DNA of 64,000 bases from Promethearchaeota archaeon (GCA_011364925.1 RDOA01000007.1:6936-70935); one strand, 5' to 3'. Shown: positions 9,261 to 32,695, counted from the first letter of the stretch. Translations and numbers: made by a program. Notes: a model not told the origin generated them from the sequence alone.

Positions 9261-10163
9261 ATGCTAAATTTTGAACAAGAACAAAAAGTATTAGAAATTG
9301 GATCGGTACGAATTGGAGGGCAGCCAGGAGAAAACCCAGTTGTTATGATTGCTACCGTTTTCTATACAAATCACGCTGCCTTATTAGACGAAAAAAAAGG
9401 GGAAATTGATCGAGATCTTGTTGAACAAGAATTAAACGAATATTCAGAAATCATAGAGGAAACTGGAATGCAAGGGATAGTTGATATAGTAGGAGGTTAT
9501 CCAGAAGCTTTACTGAAAGAATGTGAATTTGTTGCTGATGTTATCGAATATCCGTTTTTAGTAGATGGCTTAAACGACTCTTCGCGCATTCCAGCTATGG
9601 AAGGGTTAAAAGAAGTGGGACTCTTAGATCGAGCTATTTTAAACAGTATAGATGAATCTACAACAGAGGAGAGCTTAATCAAATTAAAGGAAATTGGAGT
9701 AAAATCCACGGTTTTATTAACTTTTGGAAATAAATATATATTTCCTCAACAGAAAATCGATTTCCTAAAGAATGTATTAATTCCTAAAGCGCAAAAAGCC
9801 AATATTGAAAATATTATTGTTGACACTGCCGTGTTAGATTTACCTTCTATCGGAATCAATGCCGAAACAGCAAGGAGAGTAAAAGCAGAGTTAGGGATCC
9901 CCGTAGGATTTGCTCCTGCTAATGCTATTTATGGTTGGAATTTTGTTAAAAAGTATGGAGATAAAGCTAGATGTGGTGGAATTGCTTCCTTAATGGCTTA
10001 TTGTGTCAATGCTGGAAGTGATTTTGTGCTTTTTGGACCTATTAAATTTTCAAAATGCGTTATACCAGCTATCTCTCTTATCTCAGGCATAAATTCATAC
10101 TATCGAAGGCGAATTTTACGAAAACCTATTTCCGATCGAACCCCATTGAAGCAGATCTTTTAA
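9261..10163 (+). CDS. mtrH: MtrH-family (tetrahydromethanopterin S-methyltransferase subunit H-like) methyltransferase
   Basis: FEQEQKVLEIGSVRIGGQPGENPVVMIATVFY...YPFLVDGLNDSSRIPAMEGLKEVGLLDRAILNSI follows the MtrH N-terminal pattern closely. Confidence 0.8.
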   Translation: MLNFEQEQKVLEIGSVRIGGQPGENPVVMIATVFYTNHAALLDEKKGEIDRDLVEQELNEYSEIIEETGMQGIVDIVGGYPEALLKECEFVADVIEYPFLVDGLNDSSRIPAMEGLKEVGLLDRAILNSIDESTTEESLIKLKEIGVKSTVLLTFGNKYIFPQQKIDFLKNVLIPKAQKANIENIIVDTAVLDLPSIGINAETARRVKAELGIPVGFAPANAIYGWNFVKKYGDKARCGGIASLMAYCVNAGSDFVLFGPIKFSKCVIPAISLISGINSYYRRRILRKPISDRTPLKQIF

Positions 10164-11671
10164 GATATGTATCTAATTAACAAATCTTGTGTTCGATCCA
10201 AGAATTCTTTTACATGTTGATTAATGCTTTCTTTTTTGCTTTCATCGTCTAACAAAAAAAGGATGTACATATCGTAATTTAACACAAGTATTTTCTTGAA
10301 TAAAATAATTGAATCTGAAACTCTAAATGTCGCTTCATCTTTCTCGGTAGCCTTAAAGTTAGAAAATATTTTAAATAACATTGTAAACTGTGGAGCAACT
10401 ACTTCAAAAACATTCAATAATTCTTCAGAATTTTGCATTTCAGTAATTTGCAGTGCTTTAGAATTAAACGATTCTGCTAGCACTAATCCATCACTGCTTA
10501 GGAGTAGGATTAGAGAAGCGTCTGTGGCTAATGAAAATTCTCCAAGGTTATGTTCAACTAAATCTCTATTTGGACTAAGTTTTGCAATACCAGAAGAAAA
10601 GGCTCGCAAAATTGAAAAGATTTGAAAGAGGCTTGTGATAAAAATCTCAGGAGCTCTTTCTGGGGTCAATTTAATTAATTCACTTGTTATGTTTTTAATG
10701 TTCGCTTTGATTTCTTCTGATTCGAGTATGTCAGAATCCCCCTTCGATAATATGTAAATTATTGGTGTGTTTTGTTCCAAATCTGCTAATGCAAGTTTCA
10801 TTTTTTTTAGATACTCTATGCTCTCTTCAAAACGTTTTTTATCGCGGATGTCAATAAAATAGAAAAGCAGGTCTGCTTCGAATAGGTAAATTTGAGCTTT
10901 ATTAAGATATCGTTCGTGATATATTTTTTGTCCACCTAAGTCCCAAATAAATATGGTTGCTCCCAGTGCCTCTATTGAACTTACATCTGCTCCTCTTGTT
11001 GGGCTTAACCCTATCAATTTTGAAAATTTTCTGTCAATAGAAAGTAAAAAACTTGTTTTTCCGCTATTATCTAATCCTGCAAATAAGATTTTCATTTTTC
11101 TCTGAGATGAAATCGGTGTGGAAGGCGTCTTTTCAATGGTTATAATTTTTTTCACTAGATTTCTAAAATCTGATTCTACTTTTTTTTGTTGTGGAATCTG
11201 TTTAGTCAGTTTTTTATCAAAATTAGAGAAGAAATCAATAATGATGTTTTTGAGTCGATTAATATTATTGTAAAGAAAACTCCTTTTTTTCTCGTCAATT
11301 AATATACAAAAGGCACTTGCTGCGGGAATCTCTGTCGTTTCAGTTTCGAAGAAGTGGAAAAATGTGAGAGAAGTTAGTTTAAGATCGGGAAAGGGTATAA
11401 TCCCAAAGTATTGGTAATTTTTTAATACTTCGACCTCTTTATTGTAAACAGCCCCATCTCCTATTAAGAGAGAAATGTTTTTTATTGCGATTTGAGTATA
11501 ATCCCTTAGGGAAATTGCAAGAAGATCTCTCTCTTTTTCCTCTTGACTCATGCTTTCTAACTCTTCGACCTCAAATGGTTGAGGAAACATATAAACTGGT
11601 TGAGGTCCCAGTTTATCGAAGGCGGAAAAGACCATTCCTTTAATGATTGACGATTCGATTAGCTTGTCCAT
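10160..11671 (-). CDS. Three-domain protein: longin-like (uDENN-type) N-domain, Arf/Rag-like small GTPase, C-terminal Roadblock-like domain
   Basis: Longin-like part: VFSAFDKLGPQPVYMFP...IAIKNISLLIGD...YFGIIPFPDLKLTSLTFFHFF. G1 is KILFAGLDNSGKTS, G2 is SPTRG, G3 is IWDLGGQ, and G4 is atypical (ILSKGD). The tail SLILLLSSDGLVLAESF...IILFKKILVLNYDMYILFLL is Roadblock-like. Paralog of 17255..18667. Confidence 0.8.
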   Translation of the reverse strand: MDKLIESSIIKGMVFSAFDKLGPQPVYMFPQPFEVEELESMSQEEKERDLLAISLRDYTQIAIKNISLLIGDGAVYNKEVEVLKNYQYFGIIPFPDLKLTSLTFFHFFETETTEIPAASAFCILIDEKKRSFLYNNINRLKNIIIDFFSNFDKKLTKQIPQQKKVESDFRNLVKKIITIEKTPSTPISSQRKMKILFAGLDNSGKTSFLLSIDRKFSKLIGLSPTRGADVSSIEALGATIFIWDLGGQKIYHERYLNKAQIYLFEADLLFYFIDIRDKKRFEESIEYLKKMKLALADLEQNTPIIYILSKGDSDILESEEIKANIKNITSELIKLTPERAPEIFITSLFQIFSILRAFSSGIAKLSPNRDLVEHNLGEFSLATDASLILLLSSDGLVLAESFNSKALQITEMQNSEELLNVFEVVAPQFTMLFKIFSNFKATEKDEATFRVSDSIILFKKILVLNYDMYILFLLDDESKKESINQHVKEFLDRTQDLLIRYIS

Positions 11672-11755: not shown

Positions 11756-12724
11756 ATGCTGGAAAAAATTGCGAACTACATTCGGAATAACAGAAACATC
11801 ATTGAAAAAGAAGAACTTAATCCCATTGTAGAGTTTATCAACGCTAACTCTTACAAGAGTTCCCACATTTTTTCAGACATGGGACAAGATTCTGCGGCAA
11901 TTAAAAGAAACGACGATACGCTTACGTTAGTAACCACCGATAGAATACGAACGAGTTTTATCGAAAGATTTCCATTTGGAGCCGGATTCAGTTCTATATT
12001 GGTTGGTGTTGACGATATTTACGCTTGTGGGGGAACGCCCTTAGCAGCAACGGTTATCATATCTTTCAAGGATAAAAGTGTAGGTCAAAAAATGATTGAA
12101 GGGATTAGTAATGGCTCTCACAAGTTTAAAGTTCCGATTATTAGGGGTCATACCAATACAAAAGATTACTACGAACTAAGCTCTACTTTAATCGGTGAAA
12201 TTAATAAGAACGATTATATTCCTGCTAACACTGCTAAAGAACTTGACGAGATTATTTTGGCTGTGGATTTTGATGGAAAAGTAGGTAGAGCAAGTAAGTT
12301 GCATTGGGATACCGTTACGTATAAATCATCTGAAGAAGTCTTAAACAAAAGGTATGCCATGAATCTTATTGCTCAATCTCATCTTGCCCACTCTTCTAAG
12401 GATGTATCCAATGGTGGAATATTTGGCACGATTTTACAATTATTAAAGTATTCAAGGGTAGGAGCAGCTATCAACATAAATCAAATTGAAATTCCTTCTA
12501 AATTAGTTGCAAAAGGATATGATCTCGAAACTTATGTTCAAATGTTTTTAACTACCTCTTATGTCTTGACCGCAGTTAGCAAAAATTGTCAAAAAATATT
12601 AAAAATATTCCAAGATCACCATATGAACGCGGTTGTTATTGGAAGTATTAAAAATGAGTTTGATTTATCTATTAATAATGGTCAGAATTCGATTAAAGTA
12701 ATTGATTTTAAACATAATATATAA
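11756..12724 (+). CDS. AIR synthase-related protein (PurM/ThiL/HypE superfamily)
   Basis: Motifs: GQDSAAIKRNDDTLTLVTTD...VGVDDIYACGGTPLAATVIISF and SKDVSNGGIFGTILQLL. Confidence 0.7.
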   Translation: MLEKIANYIRNNRNIIEKEELNPIVEFINANSYKSSHIFSDMGQDSAAIKRNDDTLTLVTTDRIRTSFIERFPFGAGFSSILVGVDDIYACGGTPLAATVIISFKDKSVGQKMIEGISNGSHKFKVPIIRGHTNTKDYYELSSTLIGEINKNDYIPANTAKELDEIILAVDFDGKVGRASKLHWDTVTYKSSEEVLNKRYAMNLIAQSHLAHSSKDVSNGGIFGTILQLLKYSRVGAAININQIEIPSKLVAKGYDLETYVQMFLTTSYVLTAVSKNCQKILKIFQDHHMNAVVIGSIKNEFDLSINNGQNSIKVIDFKHNI

Positions 12725-12759: not shown

Positions 12760-13320
12760 ATGGATTTTGATTTTAAAAAAAGTTTTAAGGGGACAATCTC
12801 CGTTATTGGGACAAGTGAGATCGACGTAGTCACTAAAAAGATAACAATTGAGCTAGGACGATTATTGGCTGAGAATCATTATGCTATTTCTTGTGGAGGG
12901 TTATCTGGAGTAATGGAAGCTGTTTGTAAAGGAGCAAAGCTGGCTAATGGCCTTACAATCGGAGTTATTCCATTTGAAGATAAGTCTTATGCAAATAAAT
13001 ATGTAGATGTTGTAATTCCAGTTCCATTTTCTCAAGCTCGAAACATTATCGTCGTATTGAGTGGTGATGCGTGTGTCGCTGTAGGTGGAAAAGCAGGGAC
13101 GCTTTCTGAAATGTGTTTCGCTTGGATATACGGAAAACCAATTATTGCATTAACAGGTGAAGTTGAGGGATGGTCATCGAAGATGGCAGGAAAAAAAATA
13201 GATGATAGGAGGGGTGACGTAATTTACGAAGCCAAAACTCCTCAAGAGGTAGTTGATAAGTTAAACGATCTCTTTAAATCTCAATCTAAAATAATGTATA
13301 AAATGCCTACCGAATTTTGA
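12760..13320 (+). CDS. TIGR00725-family protein (LOG/SLOG, Rossmann-like, lysine-decarboxylase-like)
   Basis: Motifs: ISVIGTSE...LGRLLAENHYAISCGGLSGVMEAVCKGAK...IGVIP...VAVGGKAGTLSEM. Confidence 0.75.
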   Translation: MDFDFKKSFKGTISVIGTSEIDVVTKKITIELGRLLAENHYAISCGGLSGVMEAVCKGAKLANGLTIGVIPFEDKSYANKYVDVVIPVPFSQARNIIVVLSGDACVAVGGKAGTLSEMCFAWIYGKPIIALTGEVEGWSSKMAGKKIDDRRGDVIYEAKTPQEVVDKLNDLFKSQSKIMYKMPTEF

Positions 13321-13492
13321 TGCAATGAATTTTATTAAAATGCTAATAAAGGCACCTTTTTGAAGGAGTAGTGTGTTTCTTTTTTGAACTTAACAAATGT
13401 TTTTAATATTTAAGTTAAAGATAATTTTATAAGATTGTTTGCAATATTATTCTACATAAGAATATATACAAATATTTTCTTGTGTAGTTCAA

Positions 13493-13497
13493 GGTGA
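13493..13497 (+). promoter_or_regulatory. Shine-Dalgarno-like GGTGA 7 nt upstream of the TTG start at 13505
   Basis: The sequence caaGGTGAaacttttTTG is read directly. Confidence 0.35.
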
Positions 13498-13504
13498 AAC
13501 TTTT

Positions 13505-14473
13505 TTGACAATTCAATATTTAACGAAAGATGAGAAAGACAAGAAGAAAGTTGTTTCAGCGTCAAAGTTGCTCTTTACAGGCTTAGACAACGCCGGAAAG
13601 ACGACAATTATCTACGGATTACAACGAGAATTCTCAAAAATTGCTTTTCTTAAGCCAACACGGGGAGCTCAAAGAAGAATATTTGAATTCATGGGTAAAG
13701 AAATCGCAGAGTGGGATTTAGGAGGACAAGTTTCGTATAGAATTTCCTATTTAAAAAATCCAGGAAAATACTTCGATGACACGGAAATCGCAATTTATGT
13801 GATCGATGTTCAGAATCGAGTGAGACTACCCGAGGCAATAAGTTATCTCAAAGATGTTGTAGCGACATTCAAGAAACTTGAGATTGCGCCCCCGATCTAT
13901 GTTTTTCTCCATAAATACGATCCTGCATTAAGAAGAAATGCTTTAAATGAAATGAAGAATCTTGAAGTAGAAATTAAAGATAAAATAAAACAAACCATAG
14001 ATTATAAACAAATTTTTTATTACAATACAAGCATTTACGAGCTTTCTTCAATTATAAAAGCTATATCAGAGATCCTATTAAGTTTATATTCAAAATCTGA
14101 ATTAATTGAAAAAACTATCGTGGAATTTGGTAAAAAGACATATTCAGATGGAATCGTCCTGCTTGACGATAATTCGTTGATTATCGGTAGTTATTATAAG
14201 GATGAAGAAACTAAGAATCTATTGTCTGCAAGCACGCCTTATTTTCTAACTCTTAACGATAGTTTTATTTTTACCGAGGTTCAACCCAGTCGTCAAGAAG
14301 AGGAAAACCATATGATTGTTCAAAGATTTGGAAGAAATTTCTTATTTAAACAACTGACTTTAAAAGAAGGAATTAACCCATATTACATTCTCATGCTTAA
14401 ACAAGACACTAATATTAATAAAGACGATATAAATTCCTTTTCTAACCTATTAAAAGAGATCTTATACAGTTAA
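13505..14473 (+). CDS. Rag/Gtr-like small GTPase (Arf-like P-loop, HKxD G4) with C-terminal Roadblock-like domain
   Basis: G1 is LLFTGLDNAGKTT, G2 is KPTRG, G3 is EWDLGGQ, followed by IYVIDVQN. G4 is VFLHKYDP (HKxD, as in Rag/Gtr1). The C-terminal ~130 aa (GIVLLDDNSLIIGSYY...YYILMLKQD) are Roadblock-like. TTG start. Confidence 0.75.
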   Translation: MTIQYLTKDEKDKKKVVSASKLLFTGLDNAGKTTIIYGLQREFSKIAFLKPTRGAQRRIFEFMGKEIAEWDLGGQVSYRISYLKNPGKYFDDTEIAIYVIDVQNRVRLPEAISYLKDVVATFKKLEIAPPIYVFLHKYDPALRRNALNEMKNLEVEIKDKIKQTIDYKQIFYYNTSIYELSSIIKAISEILLSLYSKSELIEKTIVEFGKKTYSDGIVLLDDNSLIIGSYYKDEETKNLLSASTPYFLTLNDSFIFTEVQPSRQEEENHMIVQRFGRNFLFKQLTLKEGINPYYILMLKQDTNINKDDINSFSNLLKEILYS

Positions 14474-14599
14474 CTCTTTTCTTTTTTATCTTTGTTTTTG
14501 TCAATATTAATAAAATTGTGTTTTCATACTACTATTATAGTTAAAAGTATAAAAAATTAATAGTTCTGATTTTAACGATAAAAAGAAGAGATAAATAGT

Positions 14600-15598
14600 A
14601 TGATTATTTGCTCTAACTGTGGAACTACAAACAACGAACAAAACGGTCATATATGCAGGAAATGTGGTGCATTGCTCCCAATTTCTGTTAAACCCTCAAG
14701 AACAAAAACTTCATCGAAAAAGTCAGAAAAACCAAAAATTAAAGAGCAAAGAACTCCACCAGAAAAAAAGACGCCTACTACTAAACCAGAAAAGAAACCA
14801 GTTAATAAGGAGTTTAATACGGTGCCCAATGTTTTAGACCTTCACGAAATTCCTAAACCTAATGATCAAACCGAGGAGAAGTACTTGAGAGTTAACGATG
14901 AAAGCGATTTTAGCGAACCTGAAGATGATGGTGAAATTTTGAGAGAAATTCAACCACAACCATTCAGAGGCTCAATAATAGCAGAGAAAGGTGTTTATGG
15001 CCATCACCAGCAAACAGAGGGAGTGACAACTTCAAGGACCCAAGAAATTCCTTCTACTCCTAAAACCGAATCTAGTCTTATAAAACAAAAACAATTAGAA
15101 GAGGACATGACCAAGGTGCTTTCCTTTCTCTCAAAAAAAGTTACAGTTAAACCTCTCGAGTCCGCGAGAAAAAAGGAGGAAGTTAAAAAGAAACCGGAGG
15201 AGGTCATTCCTCCCTCTAGCATGACTGAAATTTTAAAAGATCTTTTAAAACTGGATTTGCATATCGAGGCGTCCGCTATTATAAAGAAAGATGGTACGAT
15301 TTTAGCTTCCGCGATTAGCTCAAGGATATCTGATTCACTTTTTGCTACGATTGGTCAAAATCTATCGATGATTGGTAATGATATTATTAATGGATTGAGT
15401 GCTGGGAACTTATTAAATATCTCAATAAGAGGGACAAATGGCGTTTTAGATTTAGCACCGATAGGATCAAAAGAAACTTTAGGAGACGATATGATTTTAA
15501 TTATTTTCTCACACCCACGAGTTAAAAGCGGAATCATAAATCTTGCCGCATCCAATGTTAGGAAACAGGTTACTCAATATTTAGGCTTGTCAAAGTAA
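14600..15598 (+). CDS. Zinc-ribbon, K/P/E/T-rich disordered linker, Roadblock/LC7 (MglB-like) domain protein
   Basis: N-terminus: CSNCGTTNNEQNGHICRKCG. The linker is ~190 aa. C-terminus: MTEILKDLLKLDLHIEASAIIKKDGTILASAIS...LFATIGQNLSMIGNDIINGL...LLNISIRGTNGVLDLAPIG...MILIIFSH. Confidence 0.8.
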   Translation: MIICSNCGTTNNEQNGHICRKCGALLPISVKPSRTKTSSKKSEKPKIKEQRTPPEKKTPTTKPEKKPVNKEFNTVPNVLDLHEIPKPNDQTEEKYLRVNDESDFSEPEDDGEILREIQPQPFRGSIIAEKGVYGHHQQTEGVTTSRTQEIPSTPKTESSLIKQKQLEEDMTKVLSFLSKKVTVKPLESARKKEEVKKKPEEVIPPSSMTEILKDLLKLDLHIEASAIIKKDGTILASAISSRISDSLFATIGQNLSMIGNDIINGLSAGNLLNISIRGTNGVLDLAPIGSKETLGDDMILIIFSHPRVKSGIINLAASNVRKQVTQYLGLSK

Positions 15599-16387
15599 TT
15601 GTTTTTGCGAGATTATTTTTGAAAGTTTCTCAGTTTTGAAAAAGGGCAAGTTTACTTGCAACTCTTGTAAAAAAGAATTTAAATTATAAACCCCGACTAA
15701 TGGAACTGAATTTTCATTTATCTTAATCCAATTTGATTCTAATGTTACCATTATTGGAATTAGAGTAAATGGTAATCTTTTTCGTAAATCATAATTGATT
15801 CCTAATATGTTCTGGATTAAGTTGGAGAGTACTTCGGGATTTTTTTTTAACGCCACCACTCTTTGGTATTGTAAATTAGCGGCTTTGTTAATCGCGCTGT
15901 AAGAATCTTTCCTTTTCCATTGCTTTGCGTCTATGACGAGTATAATGTTTTGGTGTATACCGATTACATCAATCTCGTATCTTTTTTGAGATGTTTCGTA
16001 CTTCAATGTTGATTTATCAGAAAATCTAAAATTTTTAGTAGTTTTATAGTTATTTTTTGAGAGAATATCTTGGATTAAAGCTTCAAATCCGTCGTAATCC
16101 AATAAATACGACAATTGATTAATATCTACCTCTAGGAATTGCAAACATATAGTAATAAATAGTATTTTGTCAACAACAATGTAATTAATATAGTTCCCTT
16201 TTTGAATAGAAATAAAATCAAACATACTTAAGAATTCGCGGAGCTTGAATTCGCTAAAATCCTTTAAAAAATCAATTTCAGAGATTTCTAACCAGACTTC
16301 GGTTATTTCTGAATTCCCCTCTCTAAGAAGATTATATATTTCTAAGAAAAATTGCTTAATTGAAGGAGAAGAATACAAATCAGACAT
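15590..16387 (-). CDS. PD-(D/E)xK nuclease-fold protein (NERD/Mrr-like)
   Basis: YEIDVIGIHQNIILVIDAKQWKRKD gives the D...(D/E)xK pattern. The 3' end overlaps the convergent gene by 9 nt. Confidence 0.4.
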   Translation of the reverse strand: MSDLYSSPSIKQFFLEIYNLLREGNSEITEVWLEISEIDFLKDFSEFKLREFLSMFDFISIQKGNYINYIVVDKILFITICLQFLEVDINQLSYLLDYDGFEALIQDILSKNNYKTTKNFRFSDKSTLKYETSQKRYEIDVIGIHQNIILVIDAKQWKRKDSYSAINKAANLQYQRVVALKKNPEVLSNLIQNILGINYDLRKRLPFTLIPIMVTLESNWIKINENSVPLVGVYNLNSFLQELQVNLPFFKTEKLSKIISQKQLL

Positions 16388-17254: not shown

Positions 17255-18667
17255 ATGACAAAACAAAATAACGGAATCATCAAATCAATCGTATTGAGCG
17301 TGTTTGATGACGATGGTCCAACCCCTAAAATCTATTGGCCAGAGACAATGGACGAGTCTTCAAGATTATTGATTGCAATGAAGACTATCTCTCTTTTGAT
17401 GGGAGATACTGTCTATCAAAATGGAGAATCTACCGAGGATGTTAATTACTTTGGAATCCTACCTTTTCCCGATTTAAAGTTAAATGGATTGACTTACTTT
17501 TTTTTAATCCTAGATCCAACAGCTAGAGGTAACGCTAAAGCAGCGACCGTAACTATCTTAATTGATGAAGACGATAAAATTTTTTTTTATGAAAATATGA
17601 AATACCTCCGGGTTATAATAGATAGCGCGGCATCAAAAATTCAAACGAATAAGAATCTTGATGAACTACGTACTATCATGAATGAACTAAAGGAAGAGCT
17701 TTTTGATTTTACAAGCGAGATGAAAGATCCTTTTTCTTTTAAGCGACAAATTAAAATTTTAATGACTGGACTGGATCGTGCTGGGAAAACGAGTTTTCTT
17801 CACGCAGTTAAGAAACGATATTCTGAAATTATAAAAACATTACCTACAAAAGGGATTGCGAGAAGCGAAGAAAAAATTTTCGAAGAACAAAATTCTACGA
17901 TTTCAGTGTGGGATCTTGGCGGTCAAAAGGCCTATCGAGAAAAGTTCCTTGAGCAAAGAAAGGTCTATTTATACAACATAGATTTGCTCTTTTACTTCAT
18001 AGATGTTCAAGATTCCTCAAGAATTGAGGAGTCAATGGAATTATTTGTTAAAGTTATTGACTCACTGGTAGAATTAGAGGAGTTTCCTCCAATCGTTGTT
18101 TGTTTAAACAAATGCGATCCAGATATACAAGAAAAAGAGGATATCAAGAACAATATTACAGGTTTAATTGAAAGAATTAATAAATTCTCAGAAAGATTCT
18201 TTGTAAAAATTTTTGAAACATCTATTTTCGATGGATTTTCGTTAATCTCTGCTTATTCATATGGATTATCACAATTATCTCCTAACAGAGAGCTATTCGA
18301 AAATCAATTAAAGCATTTCGCGAAAAAAATCACCTCAGATGCGATCCTTTTGTTAAATGAAAAGGGAATTATCCTTTCAAACTTCTCAAATATCGATATC
18401 TCTGAGAAGCTTTTCGAAATATCTGCACCTCATTTTCAAACTTTATACAAAACATTTAAGGAATTTAAGTTACTCAAGCAAGATTTTCTAATTTCCTCAG
18501 GAATTACCGATGAATCAAAAAAGATTATCTTTAAGAGGATTACGGTTGATAAACACAACTTATACTTGTTACTTTTTATGGAGAGAGATTTGAATCTAGA
18601 TAAAATAGAAAGGCATTTACCCAAACTCTCTAAAAACCTTAATGAATTAATTCAAACATACATTTAA
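17255..18667 (+). CDS. Three-domain protein: longin-like N-domain, Arf-like small GTPase, Roadblock-like C-domain (paralog of 10160..11671)
   Basis: Longin-like part: IVLSVFDDDGPTPKIYWP...IAMKTISLLMGD...YFGILPFPDLKLNGLTYFFLI. G1 is ILMTGLDRAGKTS, G2 is LPTKG, G3 is VWDLGGQ, G4 is CLNKCDP. The tail is AILLLNEKGIILSNFS...IIFKRITVDKHNLYLLLFM. Confidence 0.8.
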   Translation: MTKQNNGIIKSIVLSVFDDDGPTPKIYWPETMDESSRLLIAMKTISLLMGDTVYQNGESTEDVNYFGILPFPDLKLNGLTYFFLILDPTARGNAKAATVTILIDEDDKIFFYENMKYLRVIIDSAASKIQTNKNLDELRTIMNELKEELFDFTSEMKDPFSFKRQIKILMTGLDRAGKTSFLHAVKKRYSEIIKTLPTKGIARSEEKIFEEQNSTISVWDLGGQKAYREKFLEQRKVYLYNIDLLFYFIDVQDSSRIEESMELFVKVIDSLVELEEFPPIVVCLNKCDPDIQEKEDIKNNITGLIERINKFSERFFVKIFETSIFDGFSLISAYSYGLSQLSPNRELFENQLKHFAKKITSDAILLLNEKGIILSNFSNIDISEKLFEISAPHFQTLYKTFKEFKLLKQDFLISSGITDESKKIIFKRITVDKHNLYLLLFMERDLNLDKIERHLPKLSKNLNELIQTYI

Positions 18668-20827: not shown

Positions 20828-21439
20828 TTGATTATGGAAAATAATAAAAATATCGAATCAATAGTAATATCTCCGGCAAGAGATGCTCATTTACGAAAAG
20901 GAAAGGGATTTTCGTTATTAGAGATAAAAGAAGCCGGTAAAACTGTAGAACTGCTAAGAAATCTGAATATGAATATCGATTATCTTAGAAAGTCTAAACA
21001 TGAAGCAAACATTGAAACCCTTAAAAAACTAAAACCAGAAATAAAGAAAATTAAAAAGAAAAAACCATATGAATTCAAAGAAAAGAAAAGAACTCCTTTC
21101 ATTCCTGAAGAAGAAAAAGTAAAAAAGAAAACTGTTAAAGCTAAGAAAGTCACTCCCGTAGCCAAAGCTGTTAAAAAAGCACCACCTATAAAGAAAGAAA
21201 AAGTCAAAAAAGAACTAAAACCAGAGAAAGAAACTATACCTTCGGCTGAAAAGACAAAATTAACTATGCTATCCGGCTTAGGGCCTACAACCGCTAAGAA
21301 ATTTGAAGAACTTGGCGTAAATAGCGTAGAAGATCTTGTCAATGAAGACCCGGCAGAACTTGCAACATTAATTAAAGGAGTATCTGAAGAACGAATAACA
21401 AACTGGATCCAAGAGTGCAAAGAAATACTGAATAAATAG
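20828..21439 (+). CDS. Ribosomal protein eL13-like N-domain fused to a Lys-rich linker and a C-terminal helix-hairpin-helix module
   Basis: RKGKGFSLLEIKEAGKTVELLRNLNMNIDYLRKSKHEANIETLKKL matches the eL13 core pattern (GRGFSL.ELK.AG...D.RR...N...L). C-terminus: LSGLGPTTAKKFEELGVNSVEDLVNEDPAELA (HhH). Confidence 0.5.
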   Translation: MIMENNKNIESIVISPARDAHLRKGKGFSLLEIKEAGKTVELLRNLNMNIDYLRKSKHEANIETLKKLKPEIKKIKKKKPYEFKEKKRTPFIPEEEKVKKKTVKAKKVTPVAKAVKKAPPIKKEKVKKELKPEKETIPSAEKTKLTMLSGLGPTTAKKFEELGVNSVEDLVNEDPAELATLIKGVSEERITNWIQECKEILNK

Positions 21440-31651: not shown

Positions 31652-32695
31652 ATGAGAAAGTTAATTGATGCGGTAATTTACACGGATATTCACGATGAAT
31701 TAGGGCCAGATCCTATTCATTGGGCGCCTCCAGATTTACCTGAATCAATAAGGATGTTAGTGGGAATTAAAACAATGACCTTGTTAACGGGAGACCAAGG
31801 AACTGTGCCTAATTCCTTATTAATCATTCCATTTCCTTCTTTAAAACTAAAAGGACTAATAAGATACATAGAAAGAGAGGATAGCAGCAAACGGGGTGGT
31901 TTTGCGCGATCAGCTATAACGTTCTTATTCAAAGAAGCCGATGATGTAATATTTTACAAGTATATGAGCTTTCTTAAAGCTCCATTTGATGAAACCGCAA
32001 GAAGGATTATCGAACTTGAGAATAATGAGGTAGAAAAAGAAAAAGTCTTTGAAGAAATCAGCTACTTAAGAGATAGTGTAGGTCAATTATTAGATGATTT
32101 CAGAGCTAAAGAAATTTCCTTCCCATCTGCTAAAGAATTTCCCGAAAGAATTATAAGAGGGGATAAGATTGTTGATTATAGATTCAAGCTCGTTGTAGTA
32201 GGTGATCCAGGTGTAGGTAAAACTTCAACAATTTTACGCTTTACCGATAATGCATTTTTAAGGACATACGTTCCTACTTTAGGAGTTAGTATTACCGAGA
32301 AAATCTTTCAAATCGATGAGAAAGCTGTAGAAGCAATCTTGTGGGACATTGCGGGTCAGAATAAGTTTCAAACGATGAGGAGGCACTTCTATCAAGGAGC
32401 CGAGGCAATCTTACTTATTTTTGACTTAACAAATCGAATCTCTTTTAACAGTATTAAAAATTGGTACGAAGATATTATGAAAAATATGGAAAAGCATCAT
32501 CACCAAATGACTGGCTATATTTTCGGAAATAAAAATGATTTGATTGATGTGCGTAAAGTTAAATTGGTTGAAGCGTTAGCATTAGCTAAAGAATTAAACT
32601 TAAAATACATTGAAACTTCTGCTATGACTGGAAGAAACGTGGAATACGCTTTTTACGACATGGCAGAAACTGTAATAAAATTAAGAATAGAATAA
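31652..32695 (+). CDS. Longin-like N-domain fused to a Rab/Ras-like small GTPase
   Basis: N-domain: VIYTDIHDELGPDPIHWAPP...LVGIKTMTLLTGD...LLIIPFPSLKLKGLIRYI, the same family as in 10160 and 17255. G1 is KLVVVGDPGVGKTS, G2 is YVPTLGV, G3 is LWDIAGQNKF, G4 is FGNKNDL, G5 is ETSAMTG. Confidence 0.9.
   Translation: MRKLIDAVIYTDIHDELGPDPIHWAPPDLPESIRMLVGIKTMTLLTGDQGTVPNSLLIIPFPSLKLKGLIRYIEREDSSKRGGFARSAITFLFKEADDVIFYKYMSFLKAPFDETARRIIELENNEVEKEKVFEEISYLRDSVGQLLDDFRAKEISFPSAKEFPERIIRGDKIVDYRFKLVVVGDPGVGKTSTILRFTDNAFLRTYVPTLGVSITEKIFQIDEKAVEAILWDIAGQNKFQTMRRHFYQGAEAILLIFDLTNRISFNSIKNWYEDIMKNMEKHHHQMTGYIFGNKNDLIDVRKVKLVEALALAKELNLKYIETSAMTGRNVEYAFYDMAETVIKLRIE

Follow-up and report, generated by a model that had tools for sequence, protein, structure and literature searches.

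Whether two genes that lie side by side in an Asgard archaeon, one for a Rag-like GTPase and one for a protein with a Roadblock domain, also work as a pair is the question raised by a stretch of DNA of 64,000 nucleotides (nt) from Promethearchaeota archaeon (GCA_011364925.1 RDOA01000007.1:6936-70935), referred to here as the window. The first of the two, gene 1, encodes a GTPase domain (G domain) followed by a Roadblock domain of its own, while the second, gene 2, lies 126 nt downstream on the same strand and in the same reading frame and encodes a zinc ribbon, a long linker and a further Roadblock domain (Table 1). An earlier note on this DNA had placed the two open reading frames at exactly these positions and had proposed that their products are a cognate pair. 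We propose that gene 2 encodes a dedicated Roadblock-domain partner of the gene 1 GTPase, a reading that we consider probable, though far from secure, and in which the two proteins would be in physical contact.

The pair bears on the origin of nutrient signalling through Rag GTPases, Ragulator and GTPase-activating proteins (GAPs), and on which of the many Rag-like GTPases and proteins with Roadblock or longin domains in Asgard archaea work together. 'Multiple Rag family GTPases' have been reported in these archaea (bioRxiv 10.1101/2020.10.19.343400), and in Lokiarchaeum Roadblock and longin domains are described as fused to Rag-like and Arf-like GTPases (PMC4917890, citing Klinger et al., 2016); reports of Asgard Rag-like GTPases fused to Roadblock domains go back to 2016. 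What the present locus adds is a concrete candidate for an archaeal forerunner of the Rag-Ragulator pairing, with a putative partner gene beside the ortholog of a GTPase of solved structure, and a neighbourhood of about 9.5 kb with three Rag-like GTPases that makes a defined unit for study. Should the pair prove not to interact, gene order in Asgard GTPase clusters would be a poor guide to partnership.

The window has a G+C content of about 32%, and an NCBI protein (locus tag EAX91_04140) from a metagenome-assembled genome (MAG) of 'Candidatus Lokiarchaeota' matches gene 1 with 100% identity. Promethearchaeota is the current NCBI phylum name, inside the Asgard kingdom Promethearchaeati.

Gene 1 is a Rag-like GTPase related to LokiRagO

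When PDB sequences were searched with phmmer, gene 1 matched chain 8yl2_A over residues 11-319 (E 1.7e-85). The sequence of this chain, rebuilt from the alignment, is 100% identical to protein P0241 of Promethearchaeum syntrophicum MK-D1, which has 341 amino acids (aa), and the entry, released on 2025-09-10, is titled 'Crystal Structure of Homo Tetrameric RagA-like small GTPase from Asgard Lokiarchaeota (LokiRagO) in complex with GTP'. A second solved relative, LokiRagM (8ZLA/9M28), is more distant. The properties of all these entries are taken here from their PDB titles, and literature searches on 8YL2, 8ZLA/9M28 and LokiRag found no relevant paper. Gene 1 and the MK-D1 protein are 47% identical (tblastn) and have the same layout of G domain and Roadblock, although the MK-D1 protein has a longer N-terminus and carries HKFD at G4 where gene 1 has HKYD. 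The two loci also have in common, upstream, a paralog of the LGR_a type on the opposite strand, an AIR-synthase-related (AIRS) gene and a SLOG gene and, downstream, a Mrr/NERD-like gene, the paralog LGR_b and a transglutaminase-like gene. Based on this full-length similarity and common gene neighbourhood, gene 1 is the ortholog of LokiRagO, for which a structure and the binding of GTP have already been established.

The predicted structure of gene 1 can be compared with that of eukaryotic Rags over its whole length. In the AlphaFold2 (AF2) model, which has a predicted local distance difference test score (pLDDT) of 73.9 and a predicted template modelling score (pTM) of 0.73, the C-terminus (residues ~197-321) adopts the a-b-b-a-b-b-b-a Roadblock topology with pLDDT mostly at 80-92. 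A Foldseek search of the PDB with this model returned 8YL2 first and then about 40 full-length RagA/RagC/Gtr1/Gtr2 chains (E 1e-14 to 1e-6), of which those at E 1e-14 to 1e-8 have alignments of 300-330 columns that include the Roadblock domain, with Arl3 (E 1.7e-5) and MglB (3e-5) among the lower matches. Topology and full-length matches together bear out the Roadblock-like C-terminal domain that the earlier note had assigned to gene 1. The N-terminus, MTIQYLTKDEKDKKK, is without Gly2, is highly charged and is modelled at pLDDT below 50.

Gene 1 combines features of the Rag and Arf families. Its top Pfam match is Gtr1_RagA (PF04670; 85.9 bits against a cutoff of 22, E 3.6e-24, residues 21-237) and its second is Arf (PF00025; 71.1 bits against a cutoff of 22.3, E 1e-19); in an NCBIfam search gene 1 gave only a sub-threshold generic small_GTP domain and gene 2 gave no match. 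By BLASTP gene 1 is 34% identical to human ARF1 across residues 21-161, that is from G1 to G4, and 22% identical to human RagA (verified against 6ces_A) across residues 21-239, an alignment that runs into the Roadblock domain and pairs HKYD with HKMD and TSIYE with TSIWD. The best eukaryotic phmmer matches in the PDB are Arl3, Arl2 and Arf1. Of the traits of Arf proteins, gene 1 has the Pfam Arf profile, the GLDxAGKT P-loop and WDxGGQ, and lacks NKxD at G4, an N-terminal amphipathic helix or Gly2, and a stand-alone G domain of about 180 aa; of the traits of Rag/Gtr proteins, it has the Gtr1_RagA profile above cutoff, HKxD at G4, TSI[WY][DE] at G5 and a Roadblock after the G domain. Since WDxGGQ is common to Arf and Rag, the P-loop is the sole Arf-specific signature of gene 1.

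These signatures are stable. The Arf-like P-loop, WDLGGQ and HKYD that the earlier note had pointed to can all be read in the sequence and are invariant in an alignment of 18 gene 1 orthologs of 67-91% identity (A1). HKxD is retained in all gene 1 orthologs examined, including distant ones at about 39-52% identity, and the G5 pattern TSI[YFW][DE] is conserved among the orthologs and aligns to RagA. A change of nucleotide specificity, towards XTP or ATP, was considered for HKxD and rejected, because RagA has HKMD, Rags are guanine-nucleotide GTPases and the ortholog of gene 1 was crystallised with GTP.

The mixture of an Arf P-loop with a Rag G4 is therefore real, as the identities to ARF1 and RagA attest, but it is not a new clue to the Arf/Rag ancestry for which it had been called notable, for the relevant groups have been published: ArfL is an Asgard group near Rag and outside the Arf clade, and eukaryotic Rags nest among Asgard RagGtr sequences (PMC11914678; bioRxiv 10.1101/2024.02.28.582541). 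Rag-like Asgard proteins that are also close to Arf already appear in the literature (PMC10933270, PMC11914678, bioRxiv 10.1101/2024.02.28.582541). With its ortholog solved and its architecture in the literature, gene 1 is not new as a kind.

The NCBI annotation of gene 1 is a protein of 335 aa, 13 residues longer at the N-terminus (window 13466-13505). The orthologs begin M/L-T-I-Q-Y-L, and a GGTGA Shine-Dalgarno-like motif stands 8 nt before the TTG at 13505; judged from the sequence, the shorter 322-aa form looks correct.

Gene 2 joins a zinc ribbon and a motif-bearing linker to a Roadblock domain

The partner gene encodes a protein of five modules, namely 1) an N-terminal zinc ribbon; 2) a disordered linker with a basic and an acidic half; 3) a conserved linear motif; 4) a helix; and, 5) a Roadblock/LC7 domain, and this layout is maintained down to 27% identity. 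The zinc ribbon, modelled at pLDDT of about 75, has weak Pfam matches (E 0.004-0.03); its CxxC...CxxC cysteines are invariant in an alignment of 22 closer gene 2 sequences (A2), and with the AF2 and Foldseek evidence for the Roadblock fold this upholds the division into zinc ribbon, linker and Roadblock that had been read from the sequence. The description of the linker (about 170 aa) in the earlier note needs one correction, as it is mostly disordered but is more than the low-complexity stretch described there. It contains three conserved islands, LDLHEIP (residues 79-85, inside the acidic half), EILxEIxPxPFxGSII and the helix at 156-186, all kept at 27-53% identity. Within the motif at 112-134, L114, E116, I117, P119, P121, G124, S125, I126 and I127 are invariant in A2, and L114, I117, P119 and P121 are retained among the more distant relatives of 27-53% identity (alignment A3).

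This is a small family: among 1.84 billion proteins, clustering at 50% gave 104 representatives of it, and its named members are Promethearchaeota. Our searches of the literature found no paper on a zinc-ribbon/Roadblock partner family or on the three-GTPase neighbourhood.

By sequence the C-terminal domain of gene 2 gives a weak, sub-threshold match to Pfam Robl_LC7 (E 0.0077), and phmmer detected no sequence similarity between the Roadblock domains of gene 1 and gene 2. In the AF2 model, the domain (residues 208-328) is clearly of Roadblock fold: Foldseek matched it to MK-D1 and Thorarchaeota Roadblocks, MglB and LAMTOR2/MP1-p14 (E 2e-7 to 6e-6; template modelling score on the target, TM(target), about 0.7), among them 9jue, 7yh1, 7f8m and the MglB chain 6hjm. 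The MglB-type matches are 6hjm, 6izw, 6h5b, 1j3w and 3t1r (E 5e-7 to 6e-6, TM(target) 0.6-0.75), and the LAMTOR2/MP1-p14 chains are 6b9x_B, 1veu_B, 6ehr_B and 5x6u_B (E 3e-6 to 6e-6, TM(target) about 0.7).

One possibility suggested by these matches is that gene 2 is a GAP of the MglB type, in which a Roadblock homodimer would bind the GTP-bound G domain and stimulate hydrolysis, with the linker and zinc ribbon only add-ons for localisation. The chains 6hjm, 6izw and 6h5b are among the best Foldseek matches (E 5e-7 to 4e-6, TM(target) 0.65-0.75), the Joint Genome Institute (JGI) label on gene 2 homologs is 'predicted regulator of Ras-like GTPase activity (Roadblock/LC7/MglB family)', and gene 1 retains the catalytic-position Gln in WDLGGQ, all of which would be consistent with such a role. 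Yet the matches of gene 2 to subunits of Ragulator and to functionally uncharacterised Asgard Roadblocks are equally good, so the fold suits a scaffold as well as it suits a GAP. Moreover, gene 1 is not MglA-like, having a Roadblock of its own and its best sequence and fold matches in Rag and Arf. A tight operon is the usual arrangement of mglB and mglA, whereas the present pair is more than 100 nt apart. We regard an MglB-type GAP as unlikely.

The two genes remain together in near and some distant relatives

Evidence for a partnership comes mainly from gene order. When one genome was scanned for each GTDB species, orthologs of gene 1 (61-91% identity) turned up at 80 loci, and the 73 with enough downstream sequence all have a gene 2 Roadblock domain downstream of gene 1 and on its strand. 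It is no more than 2 kb away in 71 of the 72 loci having more than 1.3 kb of downstream sequence; larger distances were seen in L077 (4.0 kb) and L052 (2.5 kb), and L064 has a partial gene 2 copy at the contig end.

A further search, seeded from gene 2 relatives of 27-42% identity, extended this to distant genomes. Three of the contigs found end too near the gene 2 relative for a neighbour to be judged, and in Promethearchaeota-type MAGs the pair is adjacent in all four gene-2-anchored loci that have upstream sequence (L092, L091, L088 and L093). Here the flanks of the pair can differ, with threonine synthase upstream and methylmalonyl-CoA mutase downstream in L093 and, in L088, from a MAG of 49% G+C, homoserine dehydrogenase upstream and actin downstream. 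Because the pair is retained in L088 and L093 despite these changed flanks, its adjacency exceeds the inertia of a larger syntenic block. The co-occurrence of the two genes in related genomes, on which the earlier proposal depended, thus holds in the 73 close loci and in these four.

In L088 (3680-8345) two tandem gene 1-like GTPases of 328 and 371 aa stand before gene 2, and an actin-family gene directly after it. The tandem GTPases could be a Rag-type heterodimer.

Several labels of the MAGs sampled are odd, in that loci L017-L022, L043, L085 and L089, labelled Odin-, Thor-, Hod-, Hermod-, Heimdallarchaeota or Bathyarchaeota, closely resemble those labelled Promethearchaeota, and L019 and L020, for example, have near-identical match statistics. 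For this reason the labels are an unreliable measure of the phyletic breadth of the pair.

A number of observations weigh against partnership. In most of the 80 loci synteny extends over the whole block of about 9.5 kb, from an MtrH-family gene to LGR_b, which inflates the figure of 73 out of 73 and means that adjacency alone says less than it seems to. In the MK-D1 clade, sampled through gene 1 orthologs of 44-47% identity at three loci (L081/L082, L083 and L084), no gene 2 lies within 6-8 kb of the gene 1 ortholog, though the upstream genes are retained. L089, labelled Bathyarchaeota, has a distant gene 2-like protein without a GTPase neighbour. Furthermore, LokiRagO is titled a homotetramer on its own (8YL2), a state reported for the MK-D1 protein only, and the zinc-ribbon/Roadblock gene does not adjoin at the MK-D1 locus; taken together, the homotetramer and the lack of an adjacent gene 2 in this clade indicate that gene 2 is not needed for folding or oligomerisation of the GTPase. 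Finally, across 77 loci the two genes are a median of 188 nt apart and never closer than 108 nt, and in the window a T-run follows the gene 1 stop codon; since the spacer is never short, co-transcription is unlikely and separate promoters are to be expected rather than a tight operon. Gene 2 probably has its own promoter within the 126-nt spacer of the window, and the operon status of the pair is doubtful. No Rfam match was found over the whole window, so the spacer holds no known RNA.

All of these points would fit an alternative in which the two genes adjoin without being partners, gene 1 being a self-sufficient homo-oligomer and gene 2 serving a non-GTPase process or another GTPase, with the flanking longin-GTPase-Roadblock paralogs and the Asgard Ras/Rab-like or MglA-like GTPases as candidates. 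Their adjacency would then reflect the larger syntenic block. Against this, the pair is adjacent in L088 and L093 though the surrounding genes have changed, in L088 a tandem GTPase duplicate has been inserted with the unit still joined to gene 2, and the adjacency is on the same strand in all 73 of the close loci. We therefore think this alternative unlikely, although it deserves to be taken seriously.

A 277-aa protein encoded upstream of the MK-D1 ortholog was considered as a relocated gene 2 and rejected; it is without a zinc ribbon and gave no tblastn match.

A model for the proposed partnership and its relation to known systems

Taking gene 2 as the dedicated partner of gene 1, we suggest the following mechanism. 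Gene 1 would be a GTP-binding switch whose own Roadblock domain mediates oligomerisation as in Rag/Gtr, and the gene 2 Roadblock would dock on the GTPase, either as a homodimer or paired with the gene 1 Roadblock, in a geometry that may be like that of Rag on Ragulator (LAMTOR2/3) or of MglA on MglB. The zinc ribbon and the basic stretch of the linker could tether the complex to a putative cellular site, and the three linker islands may bind the GTPase or further partners, perhaps the flanking longin-GTPase-Roadblock paralogs. Gene 2 might also affect GTP hydrolysis or nucleotide exchange. A role in scaffolding or localisation, possibly with an effect on the nucleotide state, is more likely than pure GAP activity, given the Roadblock that gene 1, as Rags do, carries itself and the long, modular extension of gene 2.

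The resemblance to Rag and Ragulator lies in the HKxD, G5 and C-terminal Roadblock of gene 1 and in the adjoining gene, which encodes a Roadblock protein whose predicted structure matches LAMTOR2/MP1-p14. There are also clear differences. Gene 1 has only 22% identity to RagA and an Arf-type P-loop, GLDxAGKT, and no partner for a heterodimer of a RagA-type and a RagC-type protein was identified, the tandem gene 1-like genes being in L088 and not in the window. Ragulator has five subunits anchored by lipidated LAMTOR1, whereas gene 2 is a single zinc-ribbon chain. A lipidated N-terminus of the LAMTOR1 type is not seen in gene 2, which starts MIICSNCG, is without Gly2 and has its cysteines in the CxxC...CxxC zinc ribbon. 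The extended linker of gene 2 may nevertheless wrap Roadblocks as LAMTOR1 does. A homolog of the PI3-kinase catalytic domain of mTOR is reported to be absent from Asgard archaea (bioRxiv 10.1101/2020.10.19.343400).

The pair resembles MglA/MglB in that a small GTPase gene lies beside a gene for a Roadblock-fold regulator and in that the best matches to the gene 2 model by structure include MglB. It differs in its Rag/Arf-like GTPase with a Roadblock of its own, in the N-terminal extension of about 200 residues on gene 2 (zinc ribbon and motif-bearing linker) and in the loose coupling of the genes.

A neighbourhood with three Rag-like GTPases

The gene pair is flanked by two paralogs, LGR_a and LGR_b, both Rag-like by Pfam and PDB search and neither with HKxD. 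Their N-terminal domains, each of about 165 aa, carry an invariant GP motif and match Pfam Folliculin weakly, and in sequence they recall the GAP longins of the FLCN/NPRL2 type, which Asgard archaea are reported to have (PMC12290439). MK-D1 has LGR_b as well, while an upstream Rag-like gene there is truncated at the locus edge. Published Asgard Rag-like architectures (Tran et al., 2024, PMC10933270; Klinger et al., 2016, cited in PMC4917890) include those seen here, gene 1 being a GTPase-Roadblock protein and the flanking paralogs fitting longin-GTPase-Roadblock; as far as their text was covered, those papers describe neither a conserved zinc-ribbon/Roadblock neighbour nor a three-GTPase neighbourhood. 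The zinc-ribbon, motif-bearing linker and Roadblock partner, together with the three-GTPase neighbourhood, is a new variation on the known theme of GTPase and Roadblock.

The AIRS and SLOG genes stay upstream of gene 1, sometimes non-adjacent, in all but one of the distant loci examined, the MK-D1 clade included; in the exception, L093, the SLOG gene alone was seen. This upstream association is wider than the adjacency of gene 1 and gene 2.

These neighbours allow a bolder form of the partnership, in which gene 2 would be a single-chain archaeal counterpart of Ragulator, with a LAMTOR1-like tether (zinc ribbon, basic stretch and wrapping motifs) fused to a LAMTOR2-like Roadblock that docks gene 1. 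Along with the GP-motif paralogs, the block would then be a pre-eukaryotic module of Rag, Ragulator and longin-GAP, and the AIRS-like and SLOG genes might make or sense a nucleotide-derived metabolite to which this module responds. We consider this distinctly unlikely as it stands.

Table 1. Coordinates of the features of the gene pair and of its neighbours, counted from the first letter of the window.
Feature	Position	Strand	Evidence or occurrence
LGR_a paralog, 503 aa: N-terminal domain with invariant GP motif, Rag-like G domain with SKGD at G4, C-terminal domain	10160..11671	-	69/80 loci
AIR-synthase-related gene	11756..12724	+	upstream of gene 1
SLOG cluster-4 (LOG-like) gene	12760..13320	+	upstream of gene 1
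Gene 1: Rag-like GTPase with C-terminal Roadblock, 322 aa, TTG start, ortholog of MK-D1 LokiRagO	13505..14473	+	phmmer, Pfam, AF2, Foldseek
Gene 1, G1 P-loop GLDNAGKT, residues 26-33, Arf-type in sequence	13580..13603	+	G26, L27, D28, A30, G31, K32, T33 invariant in A1
Gene 1, G3/switch II WDLGGQ, residues 70-75, catalytic-position Gln75	13712..13729	+	invariant in A1; aligns with RagA WDCGGQ, ARF1 WDVGGQ
Gene 1, G4 HKYD, residues 136-139, Rag-type	13910..13921	+	H136, K137, D139 invariant in A1; aligns with RagA HKMD
Gene 1, G5 TSIYE, residues 175-179, Rag-type (RagA TSIWD)	14027..14041	+	alignments of orthologs and RagA
Gene 1, Roadblock domain, residues ~196-322	14090..14470	+	AF2 topology, Foldseek
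A/T-rich spacer, 126 nt, T-run just past the gene 1 stop codon	14474..14599		sequence
Gene 2: zinc ribbon, linker with conserved islands and Roadblock, 332 aa	14600..15598	+	sequence, alignments A2/A3, AF2, Foldseek
Gene 2, N-terminal zinc ribbon MIICSNCG...CRKCGALLP, residues 1-27	14600..14680	+	C4, C7, C19, C22 invariant in A2, at least 90% in A3
Gene 2, disordered linker: basic half, residues 31-78, net +10; acidic half, residues 79-111, net -9	14690..14932	+	pLDDT <50
Gene 2, linear motif EILxEIxPxPFxGSIIAxKGVYG, residues 112-134	14933..15001	+	conservation in A2/A3
Gene 2, helix ahead of the Roadblock, residues 156-186, KQKQLEEDMTKVLSFLSKK	15065..15157	+	helix 156-180 at pLDDT ~82; conserved in A2 and A3
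Gene 2, Roadblock/LC7 domain, about residues 203-332	15206..15595	+	AF2 a-b-b-a-b-b-b-a; Foldseek
LGR_b paralog, 470 aa: N-terminal longin-like domain, Rag-like G domain with NKCD at G4, Roadblock-like C-terminus	17255..18667	+	69/80 loci

Two genes of the block converge on a neighbour. A gene with a NERD/Mrr-like nuclease fold (15590-16387, minus strand) converges on gene 2, overlapping its 3' end by 9 nt, and is present in 67 of the 80 loci and in MK-D1. An MtrH-family methyltransferase gene (9261-10163, plus strand) converges on LGR_a with an overlap of 4 nt and is a member of the block in at least 37 loci.

Two more genes of the window lie further downstream on the plus strand. In the protein encoded at 20828-21439, a lysine-rich linker joins a region like ribosomal L13e to a helix-hairpin-helix domain at the C-terminus, and a homolog lies downstream in MK-D1 and in L086. 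The Ras/Rab-like GTPase encoded at 31652-32695, which Pfam Ras matches over residues 179-342 (E 8.8e-48), carries an uncharacterised N-terminal extension of 175 aa.

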